This document shows, piece after piece, positions 10,901 through 49,005 of a stretch of 64,000 bases of DNA. Within the stretch, counting starts at the first letter, position 1. Every line of letters begins with the position of its first letter. Under the pieces are notes generated by a model. The model was not told the origin of the DNA. It saw nothing but the letters and a program-made list of their open reading frames with translations, and ran no database searches. Source of the DNA: an uncultured Planctomycetaceae bacterium (GTDB taxonomy: Bacteria; Planctomycetota; Phycisphaerae; SM23-33); the NCBI GenBank assembly GCA_964607575.1, contig CAZSLS010000002.1, positions 25,304 to 89,303 of the forward strand, given 5' to 3'. The position numbers and the translations under genes are program-made.

Positions 10901-11115
10901 TCGGCGGGATCGGTGTCGAGACCGTGGACTAGCAGTCTGTCGCTGGTGTGCAGAGCGGCGGTGAGCTTGCCGCCCCCGCAGCCGACGTGTACGGCGATAC
11001 CACCGGATACGCCGGACTCGCCGAGCAGCTCAGCGGCGGGCGGGGCGGCGTGGGCCGAACTGAACGCAATCAGGAGCAGCGAAATCGAGGCAAGTGCGAT
11101 CTTCCAGTTATTCAT
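7924..11115 (-). CDS. Secreted fusion of a class-I methyltransferase-like Rossmann domain with PQQ-like (BamB-like) beta-propeller repeats
   Basis: The start is placed at MNNWKIALASISLLLIAFSSAHA (signal peptide); the ORF-track extension to 11634 is untranslated-looking. VHVGCGGGKLTAAL…LDTDPADV resembles SAM-MTase motifs I/II. Multiple …DGKLLWKRD… and …TGKKLWSAD… PQQ-type blades follow. Confidence 0.6.
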   Translation of the reverse strand: MNNWKIALASISLLLIAFSSAHAAPPAAELLGESGVSGGIAVHVGCGGGKLTAALHTSDRLLVHGLDTDPADVARAQKHIDSLGLYGKVSAERYDGKNLPHGDNIVNLLLIEAPAKLTAKEIERVLTPRGVVLIKSDSALLKTSGLKKTGQIGGWTEYTKPWPEDIDQWTHFLYDASGNAVSRDRKVGHPRRLQWWAPPKHARHHDALASLSAMTSSNGRLFYIYDEGSISVVHRPPDWKLIARDAFNGKLLWKRDIPTWMTHLYNFRAGPKQLPRRLVSVGDSVYVTLGLTAPAVKLDAATGKTLATYPGSDKAEELIYHDGMLLVVKGDPNILIAKSDKCFGYWQLAVHEKALIDKSIVAYDAKTGKKLWSADGENLKRITPLSLCARGDKVFYLDSEQLHCLSAESGKQQWASEFKTEGQFIRSYAPTVVVRDDVIMCLTWNRLHGFAVKDGKKLWENKGSIGFGSPGDLFVIGDKAWTAPMRKSIWRKSRTNKKGMVTTGINIPGENFLKQAKTGVGVDINTGEITDELPFVRNQHHHRCYRNKATEKYVLIGHSGIQLVDVKTKKNATNQWVRGICQYGIMPANGYIYVPPDPCQCYNSMRINGFFALMESSSADEVKIVPALEKGSAWTDVSGRKDSPSPDVLFSKDGWPTYRGGISRSGSAKCELGDKLKRKWEAKLGDNLTAPVIAGDKVFVAQKDAYTVHCLARADGKVKWKFLAAGPIDSPPTIYKGLCIVGCSDGSVYCLNAADGRLGWRFKVSAVERRVGSGNRLESPLAVSGSVLIMEDVAYFAAGRSSFLDGGIRLYGLDVWTGEQKYSRIVASGYWGKDRKGKGALVDVLISDGNTIAMREMRMSKTLRPGGKGGGTIVSSTGLLDSTWFHRKGWKYRKVAGQLVAYNDGVTVGVGNPYTRLKHIRKSQAEKYKQDGHLHQKFTRYEKDFFVFGSKISAVGKKKSARGPAATSWSIEEMIQPRAMVLAGKKLFLAGWLDSMAIELKTGRPKSPGDPDPHESVLQVYSVDDGKRTGQYKLESDPVFDGAAAAYGQLFISLKNGKVVCMD

Positions 11116-11316
11116 CTCGTGTCTCCAGGACCGATGAGGGCATCTGCGGGAGGTAATTTCCAGTTCAAGAATACCAACAACCGCACCGCTAAAACAAGCA
11201 CCGAAACGCGCCGCCGGCCGGTCCGTTGGCGGTTGCGTGCGGATGGAGGGTGTGGTACTTTGCCCGTCGAGGCGCGGCGTGTGAGGCGCCACCGCCACTG
11301 CTATCGGAGAATTGCG

Positions 11317-12324
11317 ATGAGATTGCGAATTGTTGGTCGAATCTGTGTTGTCGCCGCCGTGCTGGCCGCACTTGCGGGCGGATATATGGCTGCCGGCGGA
11401 CCGGAGGCGAATCGCAAGACGCCCCCCGGCGAATCGCTTTACACCAGGCTGCAGCGGACGTCGGTCGAGATCCTGATCGACGGGCGGATGAGCGGCTCGG
11501 GATGCTTCGTCAGTTCCGACGGTGTGATCCTGACTGCATGTCACGTGGTCAAGGACAATGGCAAGCACATCGAGATCGTCTCGCCGGTGGCCGGTCGCCT
11601 GACAGCCAAACGGATCGCGACCGACCGCGGGCACGATCTGGCGCTGCTTCGCGTAGTCGGTAGGAAACGAAAATACCCGTATCGCGAGGTAGCCCCCCGC
11701 ATACCGGATGCGTTATCGGAAGTAACGCTCTTCTGCTCGCCGATGTGGCGTCACGGTCTGGTACTCAAGGGTTCGGTGGCCAGGGAAGCACCGTCGTACT
11801 GCTGGCAGACGGCGCTTAACTGCTACGTTCGATGCATCTACATAGACGGTGCCTCGCCGGTCGGATCGTCCGGCGGATGCTGGACCGACTCGCGCGGGCG
11901 GATCGTGGGCGTCCAGAGCGGGTACCTCAACAACACCGACAAGTCGCCGGTGGGCATCGCCTTCGCGGCGCCGCCAGATGCGATAGCAAAGCTGCTGGCT
12001 GACAAGGGCGACCGTGAGGTGGCCACGATAGGCGCGGCGATAGAAGAACTCTGGACCCAAAGCCAGGGATTCATCGCCCGCCTTCCAAAGGGCACGCAAG
12101 GTATTGTCACGCCGCGCATAGACAAGGGCGGACCGCTGGACAGGGCGGGCATGACACACGAGACGCTGATCCTGGAAATCGACGGAAAATCGGTGACATA
12201 TCTCGATGAGTTTCTGAAGATCATACAATCGAAGAAACCCGGCGATCAGGTCACGCTGAAGGTGATCGAACCGATCGGTAAACCGCCTCGAGAGGTCAAA
12301 ATCCGCCTGGCGAAGGTCAAGTGA
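11317..12324 (+). CDS. Trypsin-like serine protease with C-terminal PDZ domain (HtrA/DegP-like, S1C)
   Basis: Catalytic histidine context GSGCFVSSDGVILTACHVV and serine context GSSGGCW are present. The C-terminus has a PDZ-like …ILEIDGKSVTYLDEF…KKPGDQVTLKVIE. An N-terminal TM/signal MRLRIVGRICVVAAVLAALAGG is present. The start was set at the internal ATG (11317). Confidence 0.65.
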   Translation: MRLRIVGRICVVAAVLAALAGGYMAAGGPEANRKTPPGESLYTRLQRTSVEILIDGRMSGSGCFVSSDGVILTACHVVKDNGKHIEIVSPVAGRLTAKRIATDRGHDLALLRVVGRKRKYPYREVAPRIPDALSEVTLFCSPMWRHGLVLKGSVAREAPSYCWQTALNCYVRCIYIDGASPVGSSGGCWTDSRGRIVGVQSGYLNNTDKSPVGIAFAAPPDAIAKLLADKGDREVATIGAAIEELWTQSQGFIARLPKGTQGIVTPRIDKGGPLDRAGMTHETLILEIDGKSVTYLDEFLKIIQSKKPGDQVTLKVIEPIGKPPREVKIRLAKVK

Positions 12325-36276: not shown

Positions 36277-37680
36277 TCATTTCCTCTTGACGTCATAACA
36301 ATACAGTTTGTTGAAGTGACGCAGATATAGTTTACCGCCGGCGACGACGGGGTGGGCCCAACTGGTGCCCATGGTGCGTTTGTATTCTTTAGTCCATCCG
36401 GATTTATCGGCAAAACCTTCGGCGAAGAAACGCCCTTTGATCTTGAAGCCCTTGGGGGTGCATTCGCACAGGAGCGTTTCGCCGGCTTCTTCGGCGAAGA
36501 CATAGAACATACCGTCTGCCCAGCAGACCGAACCCTTCGGAATATTCTCGACGTCTTCGTCCAGGTCGTTGGAGTCCCACATGGTCTTGCCCGTTTTGAA
36601 ATCGATACAGGCGAAACCTCTCTTGTTGTTACCGTATAGATAACCCTTGTGCAGGATCATACCGCCGTGATGACAGTCGGCGTCTTTGGTCTCCCATGCC
36701 TTCTTTGCGAAGACCTTTTGACCTTTGGCCTTCATTTTCAGGCAGATCCCGCCCTTACCGTATCCGCATGCCCAGAAGACGTGCCCATCGGAGTAGATCG
36801 GTGTATTGCAGTTGGCCATGTTGCCTTTGGCGAATTCATATTTCCAGAGTCCCTTGCCTGTTTCAGCGTGAACGCCCATGAGTCCCTCGCGGCTGCCGTT
36901 GACGAGCATGGGAACGCCGTCGACATCGCCAAGAATGGTCGAACCGTATTGGCTTTGCCCGTTCGGAGGCGATTTCCACAGCGTCTTGCCCGTCATCTTG
37001 TCTAATGCGACCATAAAGGTCTTCTCGCCGCCGGTGCAGTAGATGGCTTTGTCTTTATAGATCAGGACCGATTCGGCGTAGCCCCAACCGTGTCCGACAA
37101 CACCGCTGTCGAATTCTTTTTCCTGAACCTTGCGCGTCCAGATGCGCTGGAAGGTATCCTTCTTCAGGCACATGATTTCGCCCAGACCGGTGGTGACGTA
37201 CAGGCGATCTTTCTCGATAGTGATGCTGGCGCGCGTGCCCTTGTAGGAGAGGTTTTCGTGGCGGCCGTCGGGATGGATCTTTTCGTAATACGCATTGGCG
37301 ACGTCTTTCGATTGCTTCACTTTGCCCGTGGCGTAGTCGATAGTGGTGACGTAAAAGCCCTGGCCCTTGATCTGCCAAATGTGCTTCGGAGGCGTTTTGT
37401 ATTCGATCTTCTCGTCCGCGTGCGGTTTGCGACCGGTGATGTAGGCCAACCCGCCATCAAGCGTGACGCTCGAGTAGCCATTGCCGATACCTTTGACTTC
37501 CCACAGTTTTTTCGGACCGCCTTTGGGCCAGCTCTTGAGCAGACCGGTATCGGTCGATTTGCTATCGCGGTTCGGACCGCGCCATTGTTTCCAATCGCCC
37601 TCGGCGCCCGGAGACCTGCCGGCGATCAGAACAGCAAACACAACAACCGCCAACGGCGACAACAGACGTACTGACTTCAT
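36277..37680 (-). CDS. Secreted PQQ-like (BamB-like) beta-propeller repeat protein
   Basis: Signal MKSVRLLSPLAVVVFAVLIAG is present. …WKQWRGPNRDS… is the typical opening. Repeated …TGK.LWK… and …TGKTMWDS… blades follow. The start is set at ATG 37680 with GAGGTG 9 nt upstream. Confidence 0.7.
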   Translation of the reverse strand: MKSVRLLSPLAVVVFAVLIAGRSPGAEGDWKQWRGPNRDSKSTDTGLLKSWPKGGPKKLWEVKGIGNGYSSVTLDGGLAYITGRKPHADEKIEYKTPPKHIWQIKGQGFYVTTIDYATGKVKQSKDVANAYYEKIHPDGRHENLSYKGTRASITIEKDRLYVTTGLGEIMCLKKDTFQRIWTRKVQEKEFDSGVVGHGWGYAESVLIYKDKAIYCTGGEKTFMVALDKMTGKTLWKSPPNGQSQYGSTILGDVDGVPMLVNGSREGLMGVHAETGKGLWKYEFAKGNMANCNTPIYSDGHVFWACGYGKGGICLKMKAKGQKVFAKKAWETKDADCHHGGMILHKGYLYGNNKRGFACIDFKTGKTMWDSNDLDEDVENIPKGSVCWADGMFYVFAEEAGETLLCECTPKGFKIKGRFFAEGFADKSGWTKEYKRTMGTSWAHPVVAGGKLYLRHFNKLYCYDVKRK

Positions 37681-37893
37681 AACATACACCTCGTAATAAT
37701 AATACTAGCACAAAACGGACACCTTAATCCACCAAACGCACGGGGCGGTCGGCTCGGTCCCTACCTTAGGGATTCAGTTCGTCGGTACAATGCTTAATTA
37801 TTGGATTGCGGCTACACTGTACGTGATGCTAAGCTGTCTTCATGCTGAGAATAGCGAGAAAGGAGACTCCGGATCAACGGACTTGAACGATAT

Positions 37894-38874
37894 TTGGGTG
37901 TACTGGGCGGTGAGGCGGTGGACTTCCTGCCGCGCACGCCGATACTCATGCAGTTTGCGGCTGAGTATATCGGCTCGAACTACGCGCAGTTCGCCTCGGA
38001 CTTCCGCGTCCTGGTCCGGGCCAACGAGCAGTGCGCCGTCGATTTCGGTATCGACCAGCTCAGCACCATCTCCGATCCGTATCGAGAGACGCAGGGGTTC
38101 GGCTCGGAAATAACCTACCGCACCGACGCAACCCCGCTCAGCACGCACCCGCTGGCTGAGACCAAGGACCTATCGACTCTGGCCCGCCCTGATCCGCTGG
38201 TTTCCGAGCGAATGAAAGACCGTGTCGATGCGGTCGCGGCGTACAAGGAGCAGTTCGGCGGTCGTTACTCGATTCTCGGCTGGGTCGAGGGACCTGCCGC
38301 CGAAGCTGCCGACCTGCGCGACGTGGCGGCGTTCATGATCGACACCGTCACCGACGAACCGTTCGCTTGCGATCTGATGGACCTCTGCCTGGAAAACGCC
38401 ATCGAATTCGCCGAAGCGCAAATCCGCACCGGGGCCGACACCATCGGCGTCGGCGATGCGGTGGCGTCCCTGGTCTCGCCGCAGACATACGAATCGCTGA
38501 TCCTGCCCAGAGAAAAACGCCTCGTCGACGCCATCCAAGCCGCCGGAGCGTACGTAAAACTGCACATCTGCGGAAATATCACGCACTTGCTGGACGGTAT
38601 CGCGGAGCTGGGGGTGGACATTCTGGACATCGACCACATGGTCGATATTTCGACGGTGCGCCGGAAGGTCGGACCGGGAGTGGTGATCGGGGGTAATATA
38701 GACCCCGCCGAAGGCGTCTACCGCGGAACATCTGAATCGATCAGGGAAATAACCATGCACGCGTATCAACAGGCGGGCAATCCATTTATGGTTAATGCCG
38801 GCTGCGAAATCCCTTCGGGGACTCCGCCGGAGAATCTCAAGGCGCTGTGCGAACCGATCGAGCAGCTCTCTTAG
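37894..38874 (+). CDS. Uroporphyrinogen-decarboxylase (URO-D) family protein (MtaA/CmuA-like methyltransferase type); start codon uncertain
   Basis: …LGGEAVDFLPRTPILMQFAAEYIGSNY… matches the URO-D-family N-terminal 'GE.vDR.PvW.MRQAGRY' region and the fold continues to the end. An in-frame TAG at 37852 leaves only TTG (37894) or non-canonical codons as starts. Confidence 0.6.
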   Translation: MGVLGGEAVDFLPRTPILMQFAAEYIGSNYAQFASDFRVLVRANEQCAVDFGIDQLSTISDPYRETQGFGSEITYRTDATPLSTHPLAETKDLSTLARPDPLVSERMKDRVDAVAAYKEQFGGRYSILGWVEGPAAEAADLRDVAAFMIDTVTDEPFACDLMDLCLENAIEFAEAQIRTGADTIGVGDAVASLVSPQTYESLILPREKRLVDAIQAAGAYVKLHICGNITHLLDGIAELGVDILDIDHMVDISTVRRKVGPGVVIGGNIDPAEGVYRGTSESIREITMHAYQQAGNPFMVNAGCEIPSGTPPENLKALCEPIEQLS

Positions 38875-39082
38875 TCCAAACTGACCACCCGTTCGGTATT
38901 TATGTTCGACTTATAATCAACTTAGAGCAATTCATGGTCGATACTTACCTTTAGATTCATCGCTTGCCAGGCCCGGAGCGATCGGCAGCGGCGCAAGAAA
39001 ACTCTTGCTTCGGGCATCAGACCGCCGGATACTCACTGGAGTACTCAGCGCGGGAAGGACCAACCGTAACCGGAAGCTCAAC

Positions 39083-40027
39083 ATGACCAGAAAACTAGTA
39101 ATATTCATAGTGTTATTGTCCGCCGCCTTGCTCGGAAGGGCTGCGGACGTACCGAAAAAACAAGTATCCCAATTCAAATCCATCGCAAGAGCCAGCGAGG
39201 ACATTACCGTATCCTCCACCATGCCGGTTCGGGTCTCGAAAGTCTTTGTCAAAGATGGAGACACCGTAAAGCCCGGACAAACACTGGTGCAACTCGACGA
39301 CAAGGCCGAACGCGTTCAGATGGAACAACTGAAAGCACAGGCCGAAGACGAAACGCACCTGGAGGCCGCGGAAGCACAACTCGCCCAGAAGAAAGTCGAT
39401 TACAAACGAATCCAAAATGCCCGGGCCAAGAACGCCGCAACCGCACTGGAACTGGAGCACGCGCGCCTGGAGGTCACGATCTCAGATCTGTCCCTGACGC
39501 TGGCGCGGTTCGAACACACCCAGGACAAACGGAAGTACCTGCAGGCCGAGGCCCAGGTCGATCGATTGAGACTGCGCGTACCTACTTCCGAAAACGATTT
39601 GCCCGGGGACACGTTCAAGGTCTTCAAAGTCTTCGTTTCTCGCGGCGAGTCCGTCGATCGCCTGAAGGAAGTTATCCGGGTCATCAAGATCGATCCGCTC
39701 TGGATCGACGTCCCGGTCCCCGAAGAGATCGTCGGTGCACTGAAACTCAAGGTCGCCCAGAAAGCACGCGTGATCTTCCTCAAGACCAAGACCCTCCCGA
39801 CCGAGGGCAAGATCATCTACATTGCGGATGAGATCGATGCGGCCAGCGGAAAGCAAACGATACGTGTTGAGGTCCCAAATCCCAGCGGAATACCCGCCGG
39901 TAAGAAAGTATTCGTAGAATTTTTACCAAAGGCCCGGTCGACAACCAGACCTGCCGACAAGAAGCAGGCCGCCAATCCCACGGCAGACCGGACAGAAATA
40001 TCGATTAACAGGAAAGGAACGAGTTGA
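39083..40027 (+). CDS. HlyD-family periplasmic adaptor (membrane fusion protein), signal-anchored
   Basis: MTRKLVIFIVLLSAALLGRA is a signal. …VKPGQTLVQLDD… is a biotin-lipoyl hairpin, followed by a long coiled coil (…QMEQLKAQAEDETHLEAAEAQLAQKKVDYKR…) and a beta-barrel-type C-terminus. Confidence 0.75.
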   Translation: MTRKLVIFIVLLSAALLGRAADVPKKQVSQFKSIARASEDITVSSTMPVRVSKVFVKDGDTVKPGQTLVQLDDKAERVQMEQLKAQAEDETHLEAAEAQLAQKKVDYKRIQNARAKNAATALELEHARLEVTISDLSLTLARFEHTQDKRKYLQAEAQVDRLRLRVPTSENDLPGDTFKVFKVFVSRGESVDRLKEVIRVIKIDPLWIDVPVPEEIVGALKLKVAQKARVIFLKTKTLPTEGKIIYIADEIDAASGKQTIRVEVPNPSGIPAGKKVFVEFLPKARSTTRPADKKQAANPTADRTEISINRKGTS

Positions 40028-40398
40028 TGGCCAAAGACACCCCCGAACCGGCACAAGACGCCCCACAGGCGGCGCCTGAAGCAGCACCCGAAGGTCAGGA
40101 ACAGCAGACGATCCGAGTTCGCATGGACCAGCGGGATGTAAAAACCAGCTACGCAAACGCGTTCAACACGCACGGGCTTATCAACGAGGTCATCCTTGAC
40201 TTCGGACTGAACACGCCCGTTCCACCCCAACCCGATCAACCGCCGGAAATCATGCTGCAGATCACCGACCGGATCATCCTGAACTACTACTCCGCCAAAC
40301 GCCTCGCCCTTACGCTCGGGCAGTTGGTCAGGCGACATGAAGAACGATTCGGAGAACTGGAACTGGATGACAGCAAGCGGGTCAAGAGCGACCAGTAG
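40027..40398 (+). CDS. DUF3467-like small protein
   Basis: This is a 123-aa protein. …YANAFNTHGLINEVILDFGLN… matches the DUF3467 core motif. It has a Pro/Ala-rich acidic N-terminus. Its start overlaps the upstream stop (TGATG). Confidence 0.55.
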   Translation: MAKDTPEPAQDAPQAAPEAAPEGQEQQTIRVRMDQRDVKTSYANAFNTHGLINEVILDFGLNTPVPPQPDQPPEIMLQITDRIILNYYSAKRLALTLGQLVRRHEERFGELELDDSKRVKSDQ

Positions 40399-40424
40399 CC
40401 TTCCGAACCGGAGACTCATCCCTG

Positions 40425-42452
40425 ATGCCCCCAGACAACGTGGAAAGCTCCAGACCGCAGCCACAGCCGCATGACGGTCAACTGCCTACATTGGCTGAAC
40501 TCTTCGAACAGCTAAGCCGCTATGACGGCCCGGTGGAGGGTTTTCTTGCGCACCTCGTGCAAACCCAATGCCAGGCCGCCGACGCCAGGGGCGGTGCGAT
40601 ACTGCGAATCTCCCCGGACGGGCGCCCACAGGTTCTGGCGGTATACCCCCCCGCCGAGCCGGGATCAACGCCTCCGGTCTGGTTGGCGCGCGCCGCTGAG
40701 ATCGCGCCGCAGGTAGCGGCGGGAGGCGCCACCGATGTCAGGGCGCTGCACGATCCCGACGATCTCTACGGCCAGCCCGCGCGGAGCCACCTGGCGCTGG
40801 TGCCTTTGACCGGCGGGCAGGGAGCCAGGGGATTGGCTGCGTACGTACTCGAAAAAGGCGACGATGAAGCCGTTTTCGCCGCACGAATCGAACGCCTCGA
40901 GCTTACCATCGTCCTGATGGGGCTCCACGAAATGCGCCTCTCGCTGCAAAGACGAAATAACGATCTTGCGAGGCTCAGGGTCTCCATGGACACCCTGGCA
41001 GCAACTAACGAACACGAGAAGTTCACCGCCTCGGTCATGTCGCTCTGCAACGAAATGGCGTCAACCTGGAAGTGCGAGAGAGTCAGCCTCGGAGTACTGA
41101 AGGGGCGATACGTTCAGGTCAGCGCCGTCAGCGGTACCGAAAAAATCAACCGCAAGATGAAACTGGTCCAGGACATCGAAGCGACTATGGAAGAGGCGCT
41201 GGACCAGGATATCGAAGTGATCCTGCCCGCATCTCCAGAGGCGACCTATGTCAGCCGCGGCGCATCGGAACTCTCCCGCAGGCACGGGCCCTCGGCAATC
41301 GTCTCGCTACCGCTCAGGCGAGAGGGCAAGGGCGTCGGTGTAGTCACGCTGGAGAAGTCCGCCGACAATCCGTTTACCGCCGAACAGATCGAAGCTCTGC
41401 GATTGACCTGCGAACTGGCCACCCCCAGGATTATGGACCTGTTCAAGACCGACCGCTGGTTCGGGGCTAAGGCCGCCCGGACCGTGCGCGGCGGACTGGG
41501 CGTAGTTGTTGGCGCCAAACACACGTGGCTGAAGATGATCGCCATACTCGTATCCGCTTTCCTGGTATTTGCGATCCTGTTCAAGGGAGACTACACCGCC
41601 GGCGGTAGCATGACCCTCCAGGTGAGAACCCAGCACGTTATTCCCGCACCGTTCGAAGGGGTCCTCAAGAGTGTACACGTGGAAGTCAACGAGAGGATCG
41701 TCGGCGAAGGGGCGCCAGGCGTGACGATCCTGGCGGAAATGGACACCGCCGAACTGCGGGAGCGCCTCGCTGCAGCGCAAGCCGAACGCAGCCGGGCGAG
41801 AAATCAGGCGGAGCAGGCCAGGAATGAAGGCAAACAGGTTCAGGTCCAGATTGCAGAGAATGACGTCCAGAAAGCCGACGCCAATATCCGCCTCCTCCAG
41901 CAGCGTATTGCCCTGGCTTCGATCAAGTCGCCCATATCCGGTACGGTCATCAGCGGAGACCTCAAGAGGCATCTTGGGCGGCGCTACGAACTGGGTAAGG
42001 AGCTTTTCCAGATCGCCAAGATCGAGAACATGCGCGCCGAAGTGCTCGTGGGCGAAGACCAGATCGCCGAAGTAATAGAGAAATATGGTCCCAGTTGCAG
42101 GAAACGCAACAAAATCCAACAGGAACTCGACAATCTTGGCAACGAAAATCCCGACAGACGCCGGAAACTCGAAAACCAGATCGCCGAACTCGACAAGGAC
42201 GTAGGAGGCCGCCTAGCCGCGCTGGGGCACGCGGGGAGGCATTTTGATTTTGTAGTCGAACGAATCACACCGGTCGCCAGACCCTCGGAAGGGAAAAACG
42301 TCTTTCCGATTCGCGTCAAACTGCTCCAGACCTCCCAGTGGATGCGACCGGGCATGACCGGCGTGGCGGAGGTAGATATCGATCGCCGCCCGTACGCCTA
42401 CATCTGGACGCGCCGGTTGGTTAACTGGATCCGGATGAAGTTGTGGTTGTAG
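40425..42452 (+). CDS. GAF-GAF-TM-HlyD fusion: cytoplasmic tandem GAF-like sensor domains joined by one TM helix to a periplasmic membrane-fusion (HlyD-family) domain
   Basis: The first ~350 aa carry two GAF-like units (…GGAILRISPDGRPQVLAVYP…LALVPL…GLAAYVLEKG… and …CERVSLGVLKGRYVQVSAVSG…AIVSLPLRREGKGVGVVTLEK…). The TM is HTWLKMIAILVSAFLVFAILF. Then comes …VLKSVHVEVNERIVGEG…, a coiled coil (…ELRERLAAAQAERSRARNQAEQARNEGKQ…) and …IKSPISGTVISGDLK…. Confidence 0.65.
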   Translation: MPPDNVESSRPQPQPHDGQLPTLAELFEQLSRYDGPVEGFLAHLVQTQCQAADARGGAILRISPDGRPQVLAVYPPAEPGSTPPVWLARAAEIAPQVAAGGATDVRALHDPDDLYGQPARSHLALVPLTGGQGARGLAAYVLEKGDDEAVFAARIERLELTIVLMGLHEMRLSLQRRNNDLARLRVSMDTLAATNEHEKFTASVMSLCNEMASTWKCERVSLGVLKGRYVQVSAVSGTEKINRKMKLVQDIEATMEEALDQDIEVILPASPEATYVSRGASELSRRHGPSAIVSLPLRREGKGVGVVTLEKSADNPFTAEQIEALRLTCELATPRIMDLFKTDRWFGAKAARTVRGGLGVVVGAKHTWLKMIAILVSAFLVFAILFKGDYTAGGSMTLQVRTQHVIPAPFEGVLKSVHVEVNERIVGEGAPGVTILAEMDTAELRERLAAAQAERSRARNQAEQARNEGKQVQVQIAENDVQKADANIRLLQQRIALASIKSPISGTVISGDLKRHLGRRYELGKELFQIAKIENMRAEVLVGEDQIAEVIEKYGPSCRKRNKIQQELDNLGNENPDRRRKLENQIAELDKDVGGRLAALGHAGRHFDFVVERITPVARPSEGKNVFPIRVKLLQTSQWMRPGMTGVAEVDIDRRPYAYIWTRRLVNWIRMKLWL

Positions 42453-42464
42453 GAGACGCATATC

Positions 42465-44729
42465 ATGCCAATCGACCGCCCCACATTCAGTGAATCGTGG
42501 TATCGCGTCGCTTCGTTGCGACCGCGCCTGCGGTCGTCGGTCCAGGTATTCCGCCAGCACTTCCGCGGGCAGATGTGGCATGTCCTGCAGGACCCGGGAT
42601 CCAACCAGTTCTTCCGACTGAACGACACGGGCTATCATTTTGTCGGTCTGCTCGACGGGCGGCGAACGGTTGCGGAAGTCTGGAACGTGTGCAACGAACA
42701 ACTCGGCGACGCGGCGCCGACCCAGGGCGAAGCGATCGCACTGCTGGGGCAGTTGTACACCTCCAACCTGCTCCAGGCGGATGTACCACCGGATGCCCAG
42801 GGCCTGTTTCGGCGTTACCGACAGCGAGTGGGACGGGAAGTAAGGGGATACCTCACGAACCTCCTGTTCATCCGGATACCCCTGATCGACCCCGACAGAT
42901 TCCTCGAACGATGGGTTGGTGTATTCGGCGCGATATTCAGCATAGTCGGCTTGATATGCTGGTTGATCCTGATGTCGGTAGGCGCCTACTTCCTGCTCGG
43001 GCGGACCAGCGAACTGGGCAACCAGGCCATGGGCGTCCTGATGACCGCAAACCTGCCCCTGCTGGCGATAAGTTTCTGGATTGTCAAGATCATCCACGAA
43101 TTCGGGCATGGTTTTGCGTGCAAGAAGTTCGGGCTACAGGCCGGCGGAGGTGAGGTCCATACGATGGGCATCATGTTCCTGATCTTCATGCCCCTGCCCT
43201 ACGTCGACGCGTCAAGCGCCTGGGCGTTTCGGAGCAAGTGGCATCGCGTGGCGGTCGGAGGCGCCGGGATGTTCTGCGAACTGGCGATCGCGGCGGTTGC
43301 GGCGATTGTGTGGGCAAGTGTCGGTGAGGGCATGGTCCAGGCGCTGGCGTATAACTGCATGTTCATCGCCTCGGTGACAACGCTTCTGTTCAACGCCAAT
43401 CCGCTGCTGAGGTATGACGGGTACTACATCCTCTCGGATCTGCTGGAGATACCCAACTTCGCCCAGCGGTCCAAAAGCTACCTGTACTACCTGGTCAAGC
43501 GATACATATGGGCCGTACGCAATCCCAGGAACCCCGCAAACACTTCCGGCGAAAAAGCATGGTTCGTATTCTACGGGATCGCCTCGACTATCTACCGCCT
43601 GTTCATCCTGGTCGTGATCCTGATGTTCCTGTCCGACCGCCTTCCGGAGGAACTCAAGTTCATAGCCACCATCGCCGCGGCGGTATCCGGAGCCGTCTGG
43701 TTGTGTACTCCGATATTCAAGTTCCTCAAGTACCTGGCGACCAGCGGCGAACTTTCCCGCGTTCGAGGCCGCGCGGTAACCTCAACGCTGCTGACGGTGA
43801 CAAGCATCATCCTGCTCGTTGGCGTCATACCCTGGCCCGACCGCGTACGCGCCGAAGGTGTTGTCGAACCGCTCGGACTGGTAGTCGTGTACACTCGAAC
43901 CGACGGATACGTTGCAAACTTCCTCCCCTCGGGAACGCCGGTGGGCGCCCGGGACGTGCTCATAAACGCCGTACCGCCTACCGACGACCCGCGGCAGCGA
44001 AACCGGTTCTTCGATAGTCTGAACACTGAACTGACCGCCACACAGCAGATCCTGGAAGCCGAATACGCCAAGATAAAATGGCAGGAAGATTGGGCTCTCG
44101 CCGAAAACGAACACGCAATCGTAGCCTCGAGAATCGAAGAGGCAAAAGCCAAAGCAGAGCAGATCCATCGGGTCAGGAACGATATCAGAAACCTGACGAT
44201 CCGATCGCCGATAAAGGGTGTGTGGATATCCCCCGACGTTGACCGCCTCAAGGGCAATTTCGTGCAAAAGGGTCAGCAAATCGGACTGGTCGCCAACCGG
44301 GAACCCGAAAACCTGGTTGTCCGGGCGGTAGCATCGCAGGAGATCGGGGCGCTTCTTTACGAACTTCACAACAGGAAAAACCACACGATCCCCGTCGAAA
44401 TCCGCATACAAGGACGTCCCGCCCCGGCATTCACGGGCAAGATAATCAAGATCCTCGACTCCGCACAGGACGTCCTGCCCTCCCCGGCGCTGGGATACGC
44501 CGTAGGCGGACCGATTGTCACTCGCTCCGACGACCGCCAGGGCCTGATGGCCGCCGAGGGCTTCTTCGAAATACACGTTACCCCACAGACCGATGATTCC
44601 GGCGACCCGGACGGAGGGGTCCTGCTGCTCCCGGGACAGCGAGTGGTGGTGCGTTTCGACATGCCGTCAAAACCGCTCGTCGCCCAGTGGTGGCGGTCAC
44701 TACTGCAACTGCTTCAGAGAAAACAATAA
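42465..44729 (+). CDS. RRE/PqqD-like N-domain + M50-type (site-2-protease-like) intramembrane zinc metalloprotease + C-terminal HlyD-like domain
   Basis: GGAG sits 10 nt upstream. The N-terminus …VQVFRQHFRGQMWHVLQDPGSNQFFRLNDTGYHFVGLLDGRRTVAEVW… is PqqD/RRE-like. HEFGH lies in a TM helix (…FWIVKIIHEFGHGFACKKFG…). At least five more helices follow. The C-terminus …IRSPIKGVWISPD…KGQQIGLV… is a membrane-fusion beta-barrel/lipoyl region. Confidence 0.7.
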   Translation: MPIDRPTFSESWYRVASLRPRLRSSVQVFRQHFRGQMWHVLQDPGSNQFFRLNDTGYHFVGLLDGRRTVAEVWNVCNEQLGDAAPTQGEAIALLGQLYTSNLLQADVPPDAQGLFRRYRQRVGREVRGYLTNLLFIRIPLIDPDRFLERWVGVFGAIFSIVGLICWLILMSVGAYFLLGRTSELGNQAMGVLMTANLPLLAISFWIVKIIHEFGHGFACKKFGLQAGGGEVHTMGIMFLIFMPLPYVDASSAWAFRSKWHRVAVGGAGMFCELAIAAVAAIVWASVGEGMVQALAYNCMFIASVTTLLFNANPLLRYDGYYILSDLLEIPNFAQRSKSYLYYLVKRYIWAVRNPRNPANTSGEKAWFVFYGIASTIYRLFILVVILMFLSDRLPEELKFIATIAAAVSGAVWLCTPIFKFLKYLATSGELSRVRGRAVTSTLLTVTSIILLVGVIPWPDRVRAEGVVEPLGLVVVYTRTDGYVANFLPSGTPVGARDVLINAVPPTDDPRQRNRFFDSLNTELTATQQILEAEYAKIKWQEDWALAENEHAIVASRIEEAKAKAEQIHRVRNDIRNLTIRSPIKGVWISPDVDRLKGNFVQKGQQIGLVANREPENLVVRAVASQEIGALLYELHNRKNHTIPVEIRIQGRPAPAFTGKIIKILDSAQDVLPSPALGYAVGGPIVTRSDDRQGLMAAEGFFEIHVTPQTDDSGDPDGGVLLLPGQRVVVRFDMPSKPLVAQWWRSLLQLLQRKQ

Positions 44730-44772
44730 CCGGAGTCCGCAATTGAACGAGGTCGCCAGCACAACCTGGCGG

Positions 44773-46743
44773 ATGTTGGCGCAGCGAACGGGCGGTCGAG
44801 AACTGCCTCGCGGACTCGATGCGGCATGGGACGCCGCGGCGGGTATGGCCCAGAAACTCCTTCCGCGAACCGCAAGATTCCTCCGCCAGGCCGACGTGGT
44901 ATTGGGCTACGAGAAGCATTTCGCAATGATGACCGCGGCGAAACTCCGCACCCATGCCGCGGAGTTCCGCGACCTCTTCCGACTGGGACGCAATACATCT
45001 GACGATCTCCTGAAGGCCTTCGCACTCGTCCGCGAGGTCGCCGCCAGGCAGATCGGCCTGAAAGCTTACAGGGTACAGGTCGCCGGGGCACTTGCCCTGT
45101 ACGCAGGATGCATTGTCGAAATGGCCACCGGCGAGGGAAAGACACTCGCCGCAACCATGCCCGCAACCGTTGCCGGATGGTGTGGAAAAGGATGCCACGT
45201 CATCACCGTAAACGACTATCTCGCCAAACGAGACGCCGAGGAAATGGGCCCGATCTACCGCTTCTGCGGACTGAAGGTCAACCATATCGATCAGGAAACA
45301 CCGCCCCCGCAGCGCCGCGAAGCATACCACGCCGACATCACATACTGCACCAACAAGGAAGTCACCGCCGATTACCTGCGAGATCGCCTGGCCATGGGAC
45401 GCTTGAGGGGGCTTTCGTCGGCGTTGCTGGCACGCATCGCCGAGGGCACCCAGAGCGGGACCGATCGAGTAGTACAACGCGGTCTGAACTACGCGATCAT
45501 CGATGAAGCCGACTCGGTGCTGATAGACGAAGGCGTCACGCCGCTGATCATCTCGGGAGAGGCGCCCAATACCGAGCAGGTACAAGCATTTCAGCAGGCG
45601 GCGGGCATCGCCGGGCAAATGCAGGATGGCGTCCACTACCGGGTTAACTTCAAGTATCGCGAGGTCAACCTCACCAAGGACGGAAAAGCCTTCGCAGCCG
45701 AACTGACCGCCGAACTGGGAGGCATATGGGCCGGACAGCGGAGAAGCGAGGAATTGATCGTCCAGGCACTGACGGCACGGGAAATGTTCCTGATCGACAA
45801 GCAGTACGTTATCCAGGAAGACAAGGTCGTGATCGTCGACGACTTCACCGGGCGGCTCATGCCCGACCGCGAATGGCGAGACGGGCTGCACCAGGCGGTA
45901 TCCGCCAAAGAAAACGTCGAAGTACAACCGCCAAAAGACACCTACGCGCGGATGAGTTTCCAGAGATTCTTCAGGATGTATCGACGCCTGTCAGGCATGA
46001 CCGGAACCGCGGTCGAAGCCACTGGAGAATTCTGGCAGTTCTACCACACGCCGGTGGTGGTCGTTCCGACCAACGAACCCTGCATACGCAAGCAACTGCC
46101 CTCCCGCGTCTACGCCTCCCAAACCGCCAAGTGGCACGCCGTCATCGATGAAATCACGCGCGTCCACGAGAAAGGCCAGCCCATTCTCGTCGGCACGCGC
46201 AGCGTCCGCGACAGCGAAAAAATCTCCGCACTGCTCACGGAACTCGAACTGGAACATGAAGTACTCAACGCCGTCAGGCACGCTGAAGAAGCCCAAATCG
46301 TAGCCCAGGCCGGGCAAGGCGGACGAATTACCGTGGCGACCAACATGGCCGGACGCGGTACCGACATCAAACTCGGTCGCGGTGTGGCCGATCTCGGCGG
46401 CTTGTACGTCCTGGCCACCGACCGCCAGGAGTCCGGGCGGATCGACAGACAACTCGCCGGACGGTCCGGACGGATGGGCGACCCGGGCCTGGCGCGCAGA
46501 TTCGTGAGCCTCGAAGACGATCTGCCCAAGCGCTACGCGTTGAAGATGGCGAAATTCCTGCGCAAACGCCACCGCGATGGCGATGAGAGAATCGCCCGAG
46601 ACATCGCCGGACCGCTAACCAGACGCCTCTTCAACCGCGCGCAGCGACGAGCCGAACATACCGCTTTCAAGCAGCGGCGCGCCGTCCTGCGCACCGACCA
46701 CTGGCTCGACGAGTACCTGGGCTTCGCCGGAATCGAGCGATAA
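44773..46743 (+). CDS. SecA-like motor ATPase lacking the C-terminal third (NBD1-PPXD-NBD2 retained; most of HSD and all of HWD/CTL absent)
   Basis: …MATGEGKTLAATMPA… is Walker A. …HVITVNDYLAKRDAEEMGPIYRFCGLKV… is the SecA signature. …ITYCTNKEVTADYLRD… and …AIIDEADSVLIDE… (DEAD) are present. …MTGTAVEATGEFWQFYH…VVVPTNEPCIRKQLPSRVY…GQPILVGTRSV…TVATNMAGRGTDIKLG…LATDRQESGRIDRQLAGRSGRMGDPG… follows. The protein ends about 60 aa after motif VI. An alternative in-frame TTG start lies at 44743. Confidence 0.75.
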   Translation: MLAQRTGGRELPRGLDAAWDAAAGMAQKLLPRTARFLRQADVVLGYEKHFAMMTAAKLRTHAAEFRDLFRLGRNTSDDLLKAFALVREVAARQIGLKAYRVQVAGALALYAGCIVEMATGEGKTLAATMPATVAGWCGKGCHVITVNDYLAKRDAEEMGPIYRFCGLKVNHIDQETPPPQRREAYHADITYCTNKEVTADYLRDRLAMGRLRGLSSALLARIAEGTQSGTDRVVQRGLNYAIIDEADSVLIDEGVTPLIISGEAPNTEQVQAFQQAAGIAGQMQDGVHYRVNFKYREVNLTKDGKAFAAELTAELGGIWAGQRRSEELIVQALTAREMFLIDKQYVIQEDKVVIVDDFTGRLMPDREWRDGLHQAVSAKENVEVQPPKDTYARMSFQRFFRMYRRLSGMTGTAVEATGEFWQFYHTPVVVVPTNEPCIRKQLPSRVYASQTAKWHAVIDEITRVHEKGQPILVGTRSVRDSEKISALLTELELEHEVLNAVRHAEEAQIVAQAGQGGRITVATNMAGRGTDIKLGRGVADLGGLYVLATDRQESGRIDRQLAGRSGRMGDPGLARRFVSLEDDLPKRYALKMAKFLRKRHRDGDERIARDIAGPLTRRLFNRAQRRAEHTAFKQRRAVLRTDHWLDEYLGFAGIER

Positions 46744-47330
46744 TGGCCCCGGCACGCCCATTTGAGCTGGTCATCTTCGACATGGATGGAACGCTGATCG
46801 AGCAGATGCTCGACTTTGAGGGTATACGTAAGCACCTTGGGATCCGCCCGAACGAGGGCATACTCGAAGGAATCGCAAACATGCCGCCCGATCGGCGGAC
46901 CCAGGCCGAACACTGGCTCGTGCGAACCGAACACCTGATCGCCCAAAACGCTCGTCTCATGCCCGGAGCCATTGAAACTCTGGCGGCGATCCGCAACGCG
47001 AATATCCAAACCGCCCTGTTGACCAGAAACACGCGAGCATCGATGCAAACGGTCCTAGAGAAGTTCGACCTCCGGTTCGACCTGGCCTGGTCGCGAGAAG
47101 ACGGACCGATCAAGCCCGAGCCCGACAGCGTCCTGAAGGCGTGCGAGACGCTCGGCGTCGCCCCGGGACAAACCGCGTGCATAGGCGATTTTGAATACGA
47201 TATCGTCGCCGCCAACGCCGCCGGCGCCGTTAGCATCCTCCTGGTCCCGGACTCCAGACCCCCATTCGCCGATACCGCCGATCGCGTCATAATCAAACTG
47301 TCTGAACTACCCGCCCTGCTGGGAATCTGA
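46743..47330 (+). CDS. HAD-superfamily hydrolase (phosphatase-like, subfamily IA type)
   Basis: Motif I is VIFDMDGTLIE. …LLTRNT… and …CIGDFEYDIVAANAAGA… are motifs II-IV. The start overlaps the SecA-like stop (TAATG). Confidence 0.7.
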   Translation: MAPARPFELVIFDMDGTLIEQMLDFEGIRKHLGIRPNEGILEGIANMPPDRRTQAEHWLVRTEHLIAQNARLMPGAIETLAAIRNANIQTALLTRNTRASMQTVLEKFDLRFDLAWSREDGPIKPEPDSVLKACETLGVAPGQTACIGDFEYDIVAANAAGAVSILLVPDSRPPFADTADRVIIKLSELPALLGI

Positions 47331-47430
47331 GCAAACCAAAGGCGAACGCGGGGCGATGCCCCGCCGCTATTCAGGGTGATAGGTGAGAGTCGGTGTTGTG
47401 TAATCTGGCGGATCGGGTATTCTATGGGGT

Positions 47431-49005
47431 ATGAAATCCGCTTTCATATTTGCTGCCCTTGTCGCACTGCTTTCGTCGGCCCGCGCCGGGGAAAACGACT
47501 GGCCTCAATGGGGGCGAACCGACGACCGCAATATGGTCTCAGACCAGAAGAACCTCCCCGATCTCGGTAAGGGGAAAATCGCTTTCAAGAACGCTAAATG
47601 GGACATTCGCTGGACCGTCAAGCTCGGATCGCTGTGCTACGGGAACCCGACCGTCTCAGGCGGAAAAGTTTTCATCGGCACAAACGATCGGTTCTGGTCC
47701 GATCCTCGCGCCAAGCGAAACCGAGGCGGGCTGCTGCTGTGCATTGACGACGTCACGGGCAAAGTGCTGTGGCGCCTGCTCGTACCGCGATACAAGAAGA
47801 AGGTCTACGGCAGCGGATTCGACGACCTGAATGTCGGGGTCTGCTCGGCGGTAACCGTCGAGGGCGACAAGGCGTACGTTGTAAGCAACCGCGCCGAAGT
47901 ACTCTGCCTCGATGTCAACGGGCAGGCCAACGGTAATGACGGGCCGTATCGCGGCGAAGGTAAGTATATCGCCGGGCCCGCCAAGCCGCCGGTAAAACTC
48001 TACCGCGGCGACGGCGATATCATCTGGCGATTCGACATGATCGGCGGCCTGGAAAACGCACCGCACGATGCGACGAACTGCAACATCCTGATCCACGGAG
48101 ACCTGCTGTACGTCAACACGGGCAACGGCGTCCATCGCATGCCCGACGAGCCCATGCCCAAACCCGATGCGCCAACTCTGATCGTGCTGAACAAGAAGAC
48201 CGGCAAGCTGGTGGCCCAGGACGGATGCAGAATCGGTCACCGAACGTTCCACGGTAACTGGTCGTCGCCGTCGCTGGGCAAGGTCGGAGGCAAGGAGCAG
48301 ATCTTCTTCGGCGGCGGAGACGGCGTCCTCTACGCATTTGCGCCCCCGAAGGTGAATCCCAAAGCCGACAAGCCGGTGGTCTTTAAATCCGTCTGGAAGT
48401 ACGACTGCAATCCCAAGGGCTACAAAGTCGACGCCGACGGTGAGGAACTCGACTATTGGGACGGTGACGCATCCCGCGCCGAGGTGACCAAGAGCTACAA
48501 GGGGCAGAGCGAAATAATCGCCACGCCCGTCTTCTACAAGAACCGCGTTTACGTGGCCATCGGACGTGATCCCGAACACGGAATCGCACGGGGAATGCTC
48601 CACTGCATCGACGCGACGAAAACCGGCGACGTAACCAAGGCCGCTCGCATCTGGTCGTACGACAAGATAGCACGCACAATGTCGACGGTCGCCATCGCCG
48701 ACGGGCTGCTCTACATCTCCGACTACGCGGGGTTAGTCCACTGTCTCGACGCCGAAACGGGCAAGGTCTGCTGGGTCCACAACACCGGCGAGCGGATATG
48801 GAGTTCGACCCTGGTCGCCGACGGGAAGGTGTACGTAGGCACGGAGAAGAAGCACCTCTTCATATTCAAGGCCGGCCGCAAAAAGCAGCTCGTCGCGACG
48901 ATCAGGATGCCATACAAAATCTCGACCACGCCGATAGTGGCCAATGGATGTATCTACGTTCCCACCGCCCGGTGCCTCTACGCGGTCGGCAAGCTGAAGA
49001 AGTAA
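47431..49005 (+). CDS. Secreted PQQ-like (BamB-like) beta-propeller repeat protein
   Basis: Signal MKSAFIFAALVALLSSARAG is present. …DWPQWGRTDDRNM…, …TGKVLWRL…, …TGKLVAQD… and …TGKVCWVH… blades follow. Confidence 0.7.
   Translation: MKSAFIFAALVALLSSARAGENDWPQWGRTDDRNMVSDQKNLPDLGKGKIAFKNAKWDIRWTVKLGSLCYGNPTVSGGKVFIGTNDRFWSDPRAKRNRGGLLLCIDDVTGKVLWRLLVPRYKKKVYGSGFDDLNVGVCSAVTVEGDKAYVVSNRAEVLCLDVNGQANGNDGPYRGEGKYIAGPAKPPVKLYRGDGDIIWRFDMIGGLENAPHDATNCNILIHGDLLYVNTGNGVHRMPDEPMPKPDAPTLIVLNKKTGKLVAQDGCRIGHRTFHGNWSSPSLGKVGGKEQIFFGGGDGVLYAFAPPKVNPKADKPVVFKSVWKYDCNPKGYKVDADGEELDYWDGDASRAEVTKSYKGQSEIIATPVFYKNRVYVAIGRDPEHGIARGMLHCIDATKTGDVTKAARIWSYDKIARTMSTVAIADGLLYISDYAGLVHCLDAETGKVCWVHNTGERIWSSTLVADGKVYVGTEKKHLFIFKAGRKKQLVATIRMPYKISTTPIVANGCIYVPTARCLYAVGKLKK

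Follow-up and report, generated by a model that had tools for sequence, protein, structure and literature searches.

A 64-kb stretch of contig CAZSLS010000002.1 from an uncultured Planctomycetaceae bacterium (Phycisphaerae), referred to as the window and having a G+C content of ~59%, was analysed around an open reading frame (ORF) encoding a protein of 754 amino acids. In this target protein, an N-terminal recognition element of the kind known from ribosomally made peptides that undergo post-translational modification (RiPPs), termed RRE, is followed by an M50-like intramembrane metalloprotease and a membrane-fusion domain. The gene is the fourth of five contiguous, co-directional genes (39005–46743), with intergenic gaps of at most 26 bp between 40024 and 44743. 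Its partners encode a membrane-fusion protein (the 340-aa adaptor), a DUF3467 protein, a GAF-domain protein with its own membrane-fusion domain (the GAF-adaptor) and a truncated SecA-like ATPase. The target very probably constitutes the inner-membrane core of an export module of the type described by Kamneva, Poudel & Ward (PLoS One 2015; PMC4452313). An identical protein is on record in a Phycisphaerae metagenome-assembled genome under the NCBI name 'PqqD family peptide modification chaperone', and the JGI name is 'putative peptide zinc metalloprotease protein', a KEGG term.

Domain architecture of the target protein

The Pfam profile PqqD (PF05402) matched residues 39–103 of the target with 31.5 bits (gathering cutoff 23.4; E = 2.2e-7) and 35 of the 38 aligned homologues. 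When the N-terminal 120 residues were scanned alone, as had been recommended in the original prediction made from the DNA letters, the PqqD match reached 35.0 bits. An AlphaFold2 (AF2) model built from 38 sequences (mean predicted local distance difference test score, pLDDT, 75.7; predicted template modelling score, pTM, 0.42) revealed for the region 27–99 the topology of RREs, i.e., three strands (27–33, 36–43 and 48–52) and then three helices (54–61, 69–83 and 87–99), with a pLDDT of 74–86 for the block. A family profile of this domain covering Planctomycetota and Alphaproteobacteria retrieved PqqD (3G2B) as the best PDB match at E = 0.016, followed by the lasso-peptide RRE TfuB1 and PqqCD; these three matches are weak (E = 0.016–0.55), and all are RREs. 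W12, R30, R51 and G65 are invariant across both phylogenetic groups, which agrees with a near-invariant ligand motif, and Y13, R14, R34, W38 and W73 are near-invariant (≥90%). A family-specific motif, RPTFSESWYRV..L(R/K)PRLR, lies N-terminal to the RRE.

For the following protease core, a hydropathy scan and the AF2 model indicate seven hydrophobic helices and a probable re-entrant segment at ~232–248, after the HExxH helix. The HEFGH motif ends the second hydrophobic helix (188–211) on the cytoplasmic side, and NANPLLRYDG follows the fourth (290–311). It was found that H211, E212, H215, N310, N312 and D318 are invariant in the 38 sequences, with P313 being nearly invariant. From the seven hydrophobic helices, an N-in/C-out topology is predicted, which would make the RRE cytoplasmic and the adaptor domain periplasmic. 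The target falls short of the gathering score of Pfam Peptidase_M50 (PF02163; 19.0 versus 27.2 bits), a profile matching 32 of the 38 homologues at E < 0.01 (best, 1e-6), and the family profile matched the site-2 protease of M. jannaschii (3B4R) at E = 0.8 only. By score, the core is thus classed as a divergent M50-like clade rather than as a canonical M50 protease. The best NCBIfam match was the daptide RRE-intramembrane metalloprotease (NF041824; residues 20–412), with 160.6 bits versus an equivalog cutoff of 300, and residues 165–338 matched YydH/LiaK with 33.9 bits versus a cutoff of 225. Pfam and NCBIfam scans of the target revealed neither the PDZ nor the CBS regulatory domains of RseP/SpoIVFB.

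In the C-terminal 309 residues, no HlyD-type domain was detected by Pfam even at E ≤ 10, and HlyD_D23 matched 16 of the 38 homologues. The AF2 model of residues ~456–754, which includes a coiled-coil helical hairpin at ~509–575, matched MacA, MexA and AcrA in a Foldseek search of the PDB (E = 6e-12 to 1e-9; target template modelling scores 0.5–0.67). The best of these were MacA 3FPP (E = 5.9e-12) and MexA 1VF7 (target score 0.59–0.67 over ~300 columns), and the family profile matched EmrA 4TKO at E = 1.2e-4. The C-terminal part is accordingly modelled as a membrane-fusion fold, recognised through structure and not through the target sequence.

The original prediction had placed the ORF at exactly the position given in Table 1, and the sequence it quoted was recovered at residues 29–81. 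All three of its domain assignments (PqqD/RRE, M50 and HlyD) stand on the Pfam, motif-invariance and Foldseek evidence; the N-terminus profiles as PqqD/RRE rather than as something unrelated, and the HExxH lies within a transmembrane helix of an M50-like core, not outside the membrane.

Table 1. Coordinates of the features of the operon in the window and of two elements in related loci (numbered L; positions within the respective locus).
Feature	Position	Strand	Basis
Membrane-fusion protein (HlyD/RND_mfp type), 340-aa ORF	39005–40027	+	Pfam HlyD_D23, HlyD_3, Biotin_lipoyl_2
DUF3467 protein, 123 aa	40027–40398	+	Pfam DUF3467 (E = 2e-13)
GAF-domain protein, 675 aa, one transmembrane helix, C-terminal HlyD domain	40425–42452	+	Pfam GAF_2/GAF (residues 209–332), HlyD_D23/HlyD_3 (residues 392–551)
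Target ORF, RRE (PqqD) + M50-like intramembrane metalloprotease + membrane-fusion domain	42465–44729	+	754 aa, ATG start
RRE/PqqD-like winged-helix domain, residues ~20–105, predicted cytoplasmic	42522–42779	+	Pfam, AF2 topology, PDB profile matches
Polytopic M50/site-2-protease-like core, residues ~146–461	42900–43847	+	Hydropathy, AF2 helices, NCBIfam daptide_HExxH, Pfam in homologues
HEFGH zinc-binding/catalytic motif, residues 211–215	43095–43109	+	Motif invariance
NANPLLRYDG, residues 310–319, second M50 signature NxxPxxxxDG, Asp as third zinc ligand	43392–43421	+	Motif
Membrane-fusion (HlyD/MacA/MexA-like) domain, residues ~456–754, predicted periplasmic	43830–44726	+	Foldseek, family profile
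Truncated SecA-like ATPase (secondary SecA_DEAD protein), 660 aa	44743–46743	+	Pfam SecA_DEAD (E = 3e-100), SecA_PP_bind, P-loop_SecA
DUF3467 members in alphaproteobacterial loci	L081 6726–7046; L086 8784–9089; L087 9866–10147; L088 9699–9995		
~110-bp element between GAF-adaptor gene and target gene	L012 2844–2957; L020 3106–3219; L025 5697–5804; L029 9897–10010; L059 9897–10010		

Partner genes, conservation and related systems

The SecA-like protein retains Walker A, the DEAD box and the preprotein cross-linking domain (PPXD). Its alignment to B. subtilis SecA covers residues 28–606 only and stops inside the first scaffold helix, so that the wing domain, the two-helix finger (IRA1) and the C-terminal tail are missing. 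Translation probably starts at the TTG at position 44743, preceded by GGAG 8 nt upstream, with an ATG at 44773 as the alternative. The 340-aa adaptor matched Pfam HlyD_D23 (E = 2.5e-13) and, with 83.5 bits and hence under the cutoff of 94.9, NCBIfam RND_mfp (RND, resistance-nodulation-division); its true start is likely the Met of 'MTRKLVIFIVLLSAALLG' at ~39083, which opens an N-terminal signal or anchor.

The DUF3467 protein consists of a disordered acidic, Pro/Gln-rich N-terminus, which is variable across members, and a conserved domain of ~95 residues, for which the AF2 model predicts four strands and then a long helix and in which ~22 residues are invariant. Foldseek as well as sequence and profile searches of the PDB returned noise only. 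The predicted order of strands and helix prompted a comparison with the chaperone SecB; this candidate relationship was rejected, with Foldseek giving nothing below E = 3 and hhalign a probability of 0.2% against E. coli SecB.

No TolC-like gene was found in the 64-kb window. A promoter and terminator scan of positions 37600–47600 gave counts no higher than the shuffled expectation and did not resolve the limits of the operon. Downstream lie genes for a HAD-family hydrolase, a PQQ-propeller protein and a heparinase II/III-like protein, which, together with an upstream URO-D-like gene, are common to the four closest relatives only. The start codon of the HAD gene (46743–47330) overlaps the stop codon of the SecA-like gene, and the two look translationally coupled; since the HAD gene is conserved in the four closest relatives only, it is probably no part of the system core.

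More than 7,000 homologues of the target were scored in a database clustered at 90%. At 50% identity, 3,829 clusters scored E ≤ 1e-30, and the best 150 were almost all full length. For comparison of gene neighbourhoods, the best 80 loci from 178 matching species-representative genomes were used, nearly all of them from Phycisphaerae or other Planctomycetota. The order GAF-adaptor, target, SecA-like gene is kept in essentially all of the 80 loci that are long enough to show it (43–88% identity). A homologue of the 340-aa adaptor lies within 10 kb of the target in ~50 of the 80 loci and is paired in 23 with a lipoprotein identified by Pfam as a TolC-type OEP (E = 7e-22), while tblastn located DUF3467 nearby in ~38. 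A TolC-like gene stands beside the system in several proteobacterial loci, too. The 80 loci revealed no conserved ATP-binding cassette (ABC), RND or major facilitator superfamily transporter, with an ABC transporter being likewise absent from the operon in the window, and no conserved sigma factor, anti-sigma factor or transcription factor. By these sequence comparisons, the system behaves as a core gene set across Phycisphaerae and Planctomycetota and not as a sporadic biosynthetic cluster. In six loci (L007, L017, L060, L063, L074 and L077), the GAF-adaptor homologue aligns over residues ~1–430 only and is separated from the target by a gap of ~1 kb. Three of these loci (L060, L074 and L077) also show a split or lengthened target match; the cause may lie in insertions or in an adaptor half that has diverged or been split.

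Kamneva et al. (PMC4452313) described secondary SecA_DEAD proteins lacking wing and scaffold that are encoded beside M50-like/HlyD, GAF/HlyD and HlyD/biotin-lipoyl proteins and, sometimes, OEP/TolC. In their proposal, the module carries out type-I-like secretion, SecA providing the ATPase and the M50 protein the membrane pore; the GAF protein was suggested to be regulatory, and the biological role was described as 'completely unknown'. All four defining genes are present and contiguous at the target locus and kept in related loci, the 675-aa GAF-adaptor being the counterpart of the published GAF/HlyD protein. The text of that study differs from the present description in containing neither PqqD/RRE nor DUF3467, a candidate substrate or a link to the LEPRxLL motif treated below. 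The module has been on record since 2015; the original prediction did not mention the SecA-like neighbour.

The daptide leader peptidase MpaP (NF041824), which is the best NCBIfam match, has an N-terminal RRE fused to an HExxH intramembrane site-2 protease and acts as an RRE-dependent leader peptidase according to the daptide study. MpaP, however, lacks the C-terminal membrane-fusion domain and the SecA-like and adaptor partners, and it acts on short peptides whose genes stand next to those of tailoring enzymes. YydH/LiaK, by which an exported peptide is matured, shares with the target a weakly homologous M50-like membrane protease, whereas YydH has neither an RRE nor an adaptor domain and is partnered by an ABC transporter and a radical-SAM (S-adenosylmethionine) epimerase, both of which are absent from the target locus.

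A comparable functional logic is that of type I secretion (HlyB-HlyD-TolC), with an energised inner-membrane component, a membrane-fusion protein and TolC, and the C39 peptidase-containing ABC transporters (PCATs) of bacteriocin export unite leader recognition, leader cleavage and ATP-driven export. The target system has no ABC transporter, the component that defines classical type I secretion; it carries a SecA-like ATPase, a zinc M50 enzyme instead of the cysteine protease C39, a membrane-fusion domain fused to the protease and three distinct adaptor proteins. Moreover, the repeats-in-toxin (RTX) cargoes of type I systems have a C-terminal signal, while the presumed signal of the target system is N-terminal. 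The accessory SecA2 of Gram-positive bacteria and mycobacteria, structures of which were among the PDB matches, is comparable as a second, specialised SecA for a subset of cargoes, but it keeps most of the scaffold and works with SecY or SecY2, whereas the SecA-like protein of the operon ends at the scaffold helix and is accompanied by adaptor/TolC-type partners. SecA DEAD and preprotein-binding domains without scaffold and wing have also been reported inside giant proteins of Omnitrophota and Actinobacteria and were proposed to serve the export of the very protein that contains them (West-Roberts et al., bioRxiv 10.1101/2023.11.21.568195); at the target locus, by contrast, the SecA-like part is a separate 660-aa protein. 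A text search of that preprint for LEPR, M50 and HlyD gave no occurrence, a review of tripartite pumps does not mention the target system, and a literature search combining PqqD with M50 and HlyD, or PqqD with SecA, returned nothing relevant. For LEPR-XLL, the one relevant publication was the 2026 preprint treated below, two others looking incidental by title and abstract. The locus and its gene family as well as the fusion of an RRE to a site-2 protease were already known; what appears undescribed in the searched literature is their union with an adaptor domain and with a motor derived from SecA and, most of all, the proposed cargo class and its signal.

Peptide precursors and giant LEPRxLL proteins

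All ORFs of at least 30 aa from the 80 loci were clustered after the removal of shadow ORFs. This revealed no conserved short ORF of precursor type and no conserved tailoring enzyme (radical SAM, YcaO, dehydratase, aminotransferase etc.). A 35–37-aa 'TDYTDYTDF...' ORF, recurrent between the GAF-adaptor gene and the target in five closely related loci, was considered as a precursor and rejected because it looks like a translated intergenic repeat; the only other recurrent small ORF is DUF3467, a folded domain of ~95 residues. At this position, five related loci contain a conserved element of ~110 bp (Table 1), which translates as 'M(V/A)LSRTTDYTDYTDFLFVFS...RIENQEWL' and resembles a DNA repeat or regulatory element more than a peptide gene. 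A precursor gene together with a tailoring enzyme near the RRE protein, by which RiPP clusters are recognised, occurs neither at the target locus nor at related loci, and no daptide genes (a precursor with a C-terminal Thr, MpaB/C/D/M) were found in the window or in related loci.

The observation in the original prediction that no short precursor ORF is visible is borne out by the narrow gaps between 40024 and 44743 and by the absence of any conserved small ORF of this type in the 80 loci. Its proposal to search homologous neighbourhoods for short leader-bearing ORFs, carried out over the same loci, yielded no conserved precursor family. The RiPP-like small peptide that it implied as the substrate is unsupported because precursor and tailoring genes are lacking, conservation is wide, and the partners are SecA-like, adaptor, DUF3467 and often TolC proteins. 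Its fallback, according to which the substrate may be a larger protein or encoded elsewhere, is favoured by the comparative data, namely giant LEPRxLL proteins in eight of eight alphaproteobacterial replicons and in some Planctomycetota, with none being encoded in the window. Leader-directed cleavage coupled to export, as it had suggested, would agree with all findings.

In Alphaproteobacteria, tblastn located full-length homologues of the target on annotated plasmids and chromids (32–36% identity, 91–98% coverage). Eight such replicons were analysed, from Methylosinus, Pseudosulfitobacter, Alisedimentitalea, Mesorhizobium, Pontibrevibacter, Thalassospira, Ensifer and Rhizobium. A giant gene of at least 12 kb ends directly upstream of the operon on the same strand in each of them; six of these genes are complete (26.5, 38.7, 24.4, 31.6, 31.8 and 12.1 kb), and the other two measure at least 18 and at least 16.7 kb. 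The gene order is giant gene, (DUF3467), adaptor, RRE-M50-adaptor, (SapC), SecA-like, adaptor, (TolC), with DUF3467 being annotated in four loci (Table 1), where it always follows the giant gene and precedes the first adaptor gene.

The LEPRxLL motif was present in each of the six giant-gene N-termini examined. Two of these genes are annotated as LEPR-XLL by RefSeq, and in the other four the motif was revealed by direct translation ('...FDTLEPRVLLNAD', '...MEALEPRFLLSAD', '...FEALEPRLLLSAD' and '...VEQLEPRLLLAAD', the last one in frame immediately upstream of a mis-called start). Two translated N-termini match NCBIfam LEPR-8K at E ~5e-8. The N-terminal motif of the putative cargo reads roughly F-E-x-L-E-P-R-x-L-L-S-A (NCBIfam NF012209 LEPR-8K/LEPR-XLL), as exemplified by the Mesorhizobium leader 'RAVHFEALEPRLLLSADFMP' and the Planctomycetota leader 'PMFERLEPRLLLNAVPY', and no hydrophobic Sec-type signal was seen in the N-terminal residues of the giant proteins that were read. 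On the Alisedimentitalea scapharcae plasmid (L089 ~525–640, minus strand), a LEPRLLL leader lies in frame just before the annotated Met of the 24.4-kb 'calcium-binding protein' gene, whose annotated start is probably too far downstream. An Azospirillum VCBS gene shows no leader at its annotated start and is probably fragmented from an upstream cadherin-like ORF. A homologue of the target in Burkholderia anthina (23% identity) is preceded by a 9.9-kb DUF4347 gene, TolC and two adaptors, and the DUF4347 N-terminus reads '...LLLALEPRVVYDAS' (ALEPRVVYDAS).

In the alphaproteobacterial loci, the SecA-like genes of Methylosinus pMSC49a (L081 11204–13120) and Pseudosulfitobacter (L082 12077–14101) are wrongly named 'prepilin peptidase' in RefSeq; these were the two SecA-like genes scanned, and both encode truncated SecA by NCBIfam (E ~1e-175 to SecA models). 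In other loci, the SecA-like gene goes by the name of SecA or 'DEAD/DEAH box helicase'. Genes for a 'SapC family protein' are recurrent in or beside the alphaproteobacterial loci (L082 11263–12084; L089 858–1655; and, as a candidate 277-aa ORF, L091 22247–23077).

In the flanks of the Planctomycetota loci, 12 ORFs carry LE[PEDQ]RxLL near the N-terminus, several of which reach the contig end at >1,500–2,600 aa, and seven of ten LEPR-type ORFs passed the LEPR-8K cutoff. Nine of the 12 begin no more than 1 kb from a system gene, compared with an expectation of 23.6% given by the share of non-system flank DNA within that distance (binomial p = 2.4e-4, an optimistic value in that these loci are related and not independent). 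Two giant proteins of Chlorobium chlorochromatii, Cag_663 (36,806 aa) and Cag_665 (20,647 aa), have N-terminal 24-aa LEPRxLL domains; their genes adjoin sapC and tolC and belong to a co-expression cluster with a horizontally acquired secA (2026 preprint). Chlorobi are among the phyla reported to carry the module (PMC4452313), in a species that may or may not be C. chlorochromatii.

Proposed export mechanism and its alternatives

From genomic context, on which its functional part is based, we propose a tripartite, type-I-like protein export machine that would use neither an ABC transporter nor SecYEG. Its cargo class would be very large, repeat-rich, surface- or adhesin-like proteins with a LEPRxLL N-terminus and without a Sec signal. 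The cytoplasmic RRE would capture the short conserved LEPRxLL leader as an added strand, the leader being suggested as the ligand by gene adjacency. The 7-transmembrane site-2-protease-like domain would form or line the inner-membrane passage, and the M50 active site near the cytoplasmic face would remove the leader. The SecA-like motor, having kept the DEAD motor and the preprotein clamp and lost the SecY-engaging parts, would thread the unfolded chain at the expense of ATP. The fused membrane-fusion domain, the GAF-adaptor and the 340-aa adaptor would bridge the periplasm to a TolC trimer, in a stoichiometry that is likewise conjectural, so that the cargo would cross both membranes outward without SecYEG. 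DUF3467 may be a cytoplasmic accessory protein or chaperone responsible for holding or delivering the cargo, and a regulatory input that gates activity may come from the GAF domain. For the model as a whole, docking, leader removal and export by the SecA-like motor via adaptor and TolC included, we estimate a probability of about one half.

Several points weigh against this model. No real ORF of the window contains LEPRxLL, the one match being a chance occurrence in a shadow frame, and no LEPRxLL ORF is present in the loci of the four closest relatives; under the model, the cargo gene of this Phycisphaerae genome must be encoded outside the 64-kb window. An adjacent LEPR-type ORF occurs in only ~10–13 of the 80 Planctomycetota loci, and the Burkholderia and Thalassospira loci have no adjacent SecA-like gene. 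A SecA without the two-helix finger may be unable to push a polypeptide in the usual manner, a 7-transmembrane site-2-protease-like domain may be unable to form a channel for proteins, and the ligand of the RRE could be a partner protein in place of the cargo, candidates being the SecA-like protein and the disordered DUF3467 N-terminus. The AF2 model is of moderate quality, as seen from its pLDDT and pTM values. Finally, the three module genes of M. extorquens AM1 (META1p2399-2402) other than the GAF gene were reported to be barely expressed in the exponential phase (PMC4452313).

If the RRE docks a subunit (the SecA-like, DUF3467 or GAF protein), the same machine could select its cargo through the SecA-like clamp or DUF3467, and LEPRxLL would serve another purpose, for instance, anchoring or folding. 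This would explain operon conservation and giant-gene adjacency equally well; the invariant N-terminal RPTFSESWYR peptide before the RRE could be a docking element, and the disordered tail of DUF3467 could fill the RRE groove. Yet known RREs, including that of the daptide study, bind the leader peptides of substrates, LEPR is short, N-terminal and near-invariant across phyla in the manner of a leader recognition sequence, and the invariant catalytic residues of the fused protease call for a cleavable substrate delivered nearby, for which reasons we consider subunit docking rather unlikely. RREs count as a hallmark of RiPP pathways; a small leader-bearing precursor encoded elsewhere could be recognised by the RRE, cleaved by the M50 enzyme and exported through the HlyD-type conduit, as known for daptides (MpaP) and epipeptides (YydH/LiaK). 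The two best NCBIfam matches, the fusion of RRE and site-2 protease as found in the daptide leader peptidase and the NCBI name of the target all point in this direction. Both NCBIfam scores are, however, far under their equivalog cutoffs, and the 80 loci offer a recurrent small ORF that is a repeat in place of a conserved precursor or a tailoring enzyme. Together with the core-gene distribution, a conserved SecA-like partner with a preprotein clamp and a proteobacterial neighbour that is a gene of 10–39 kb instead of a peptide gene, this makes a RiPP-type function improbable.

The classic role of M50/site-2 proteases is regulatory cleavage, and the target might cut a membrane-anchored regulator in the manner of RseP/SpoIVFB, with the GAF protein as the sensor and the adaptor and TolC proteins being structural or unrelated to protein export. 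The sensory GAF domain encoded next door, for which Kamneva et al. suggested a regulatory role, would suit such a function. It is nonetheless quite improbable, given a conserved gene set without sigma factor, anti-sigma factor or transcription factor, a target without the PDZ or CBS domains of RseP/SpoIVFB, and signs of transport in the three membrane-fusion domains, the TolC-like gene and the preprotein clamp of the ATPase. What is transported need not be a protein; drug and metal efflux pumps are where membrane-fusion proteins and TolC are most familiar, MacA, MexA and AcrA were the top Foldseek matches, and heparinase II/III-like and PQQ-propeller genes lie downstream in the window. Export of a lipid, polysaccharide or small molecule, in which the M50-like domain would be a catalytically irrelevant scaffold, is at odds with the invariance of HExxH and NxxPxxxxDG and with an ATPase carrying a preprotein cross-linking domain, and the downstream heparinase, propeller and HAD genes are kept in the four closest relatives only. 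We also know of no role of an RRE in small-molecule transport, and we regard this possibility as very remote.

Outside the operon, Pfam HZS_alpha ('hydrazine synthase alpha subunit middle domain') matches two proteins, encoded at 53–1807 (+) and 19235–22159 (−), with E = 2e-21 and 2e-18. One of them additionally has a 3-keto-disaccharide hydrolase domain and a signal peptide; both are probably secreted glycan-active proteins rather than anammox enzymes. A 1,236-aa ORF at 7924–11634 (−) shows an unusual pairing of a SAM-methyltransferase domain (~216–310) with a PQQ_2 beta-propeller (~850–1000).

Taken further, the proposed export machine would make the RRE the signal receptor of a widespread secretion system that occurs in at least the Planctomycetes-Verrucomicrobia-Chlamydiae (PVC) bacteria and Proteobacteria and that comprises the fusion of RRE, site-2 protease and adaptor, a wing-less SecA, two adaptors, DUF3467 and TolC, with LEPRxLL giants as cargo; we hold this view tentatively, at somewhat less than even odds. 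The annotation of these genes is misleading, with names such as 'prepilin peptidase' for the SecA-like gene, 'HlyD family efflux transporter' and 'PqqD family peptide modification chaperone', and RiPP genome mining based on RREs will catch thousands of them as false leads. Cultured Alphaproteobacteria, in which cargo and machine are encoded side by side, allow a direct test of the hypothesis. If true, a large orphan family that is conserved across Phycisphaerae and comprises at least 3,800 clusters (50% identity) would gain a function, and a new type of secretion system would be defined by an N-terminal leader removed by a protease and by a SecA-derived motor working without SecY, with the adaptor/TolC conduit replacing SecYEG. 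It would widen the role of RREs from peptide natural products to protein secretion and would name the missing export route and targeting signal of the LEPRxLL giants. These include symbiosis and adhesion factors of tens of thousands of residues and the largest proteins known from bacteria, for example Cag_663 with its 36,806 aa, whose export route has been described as lacking a known signal.

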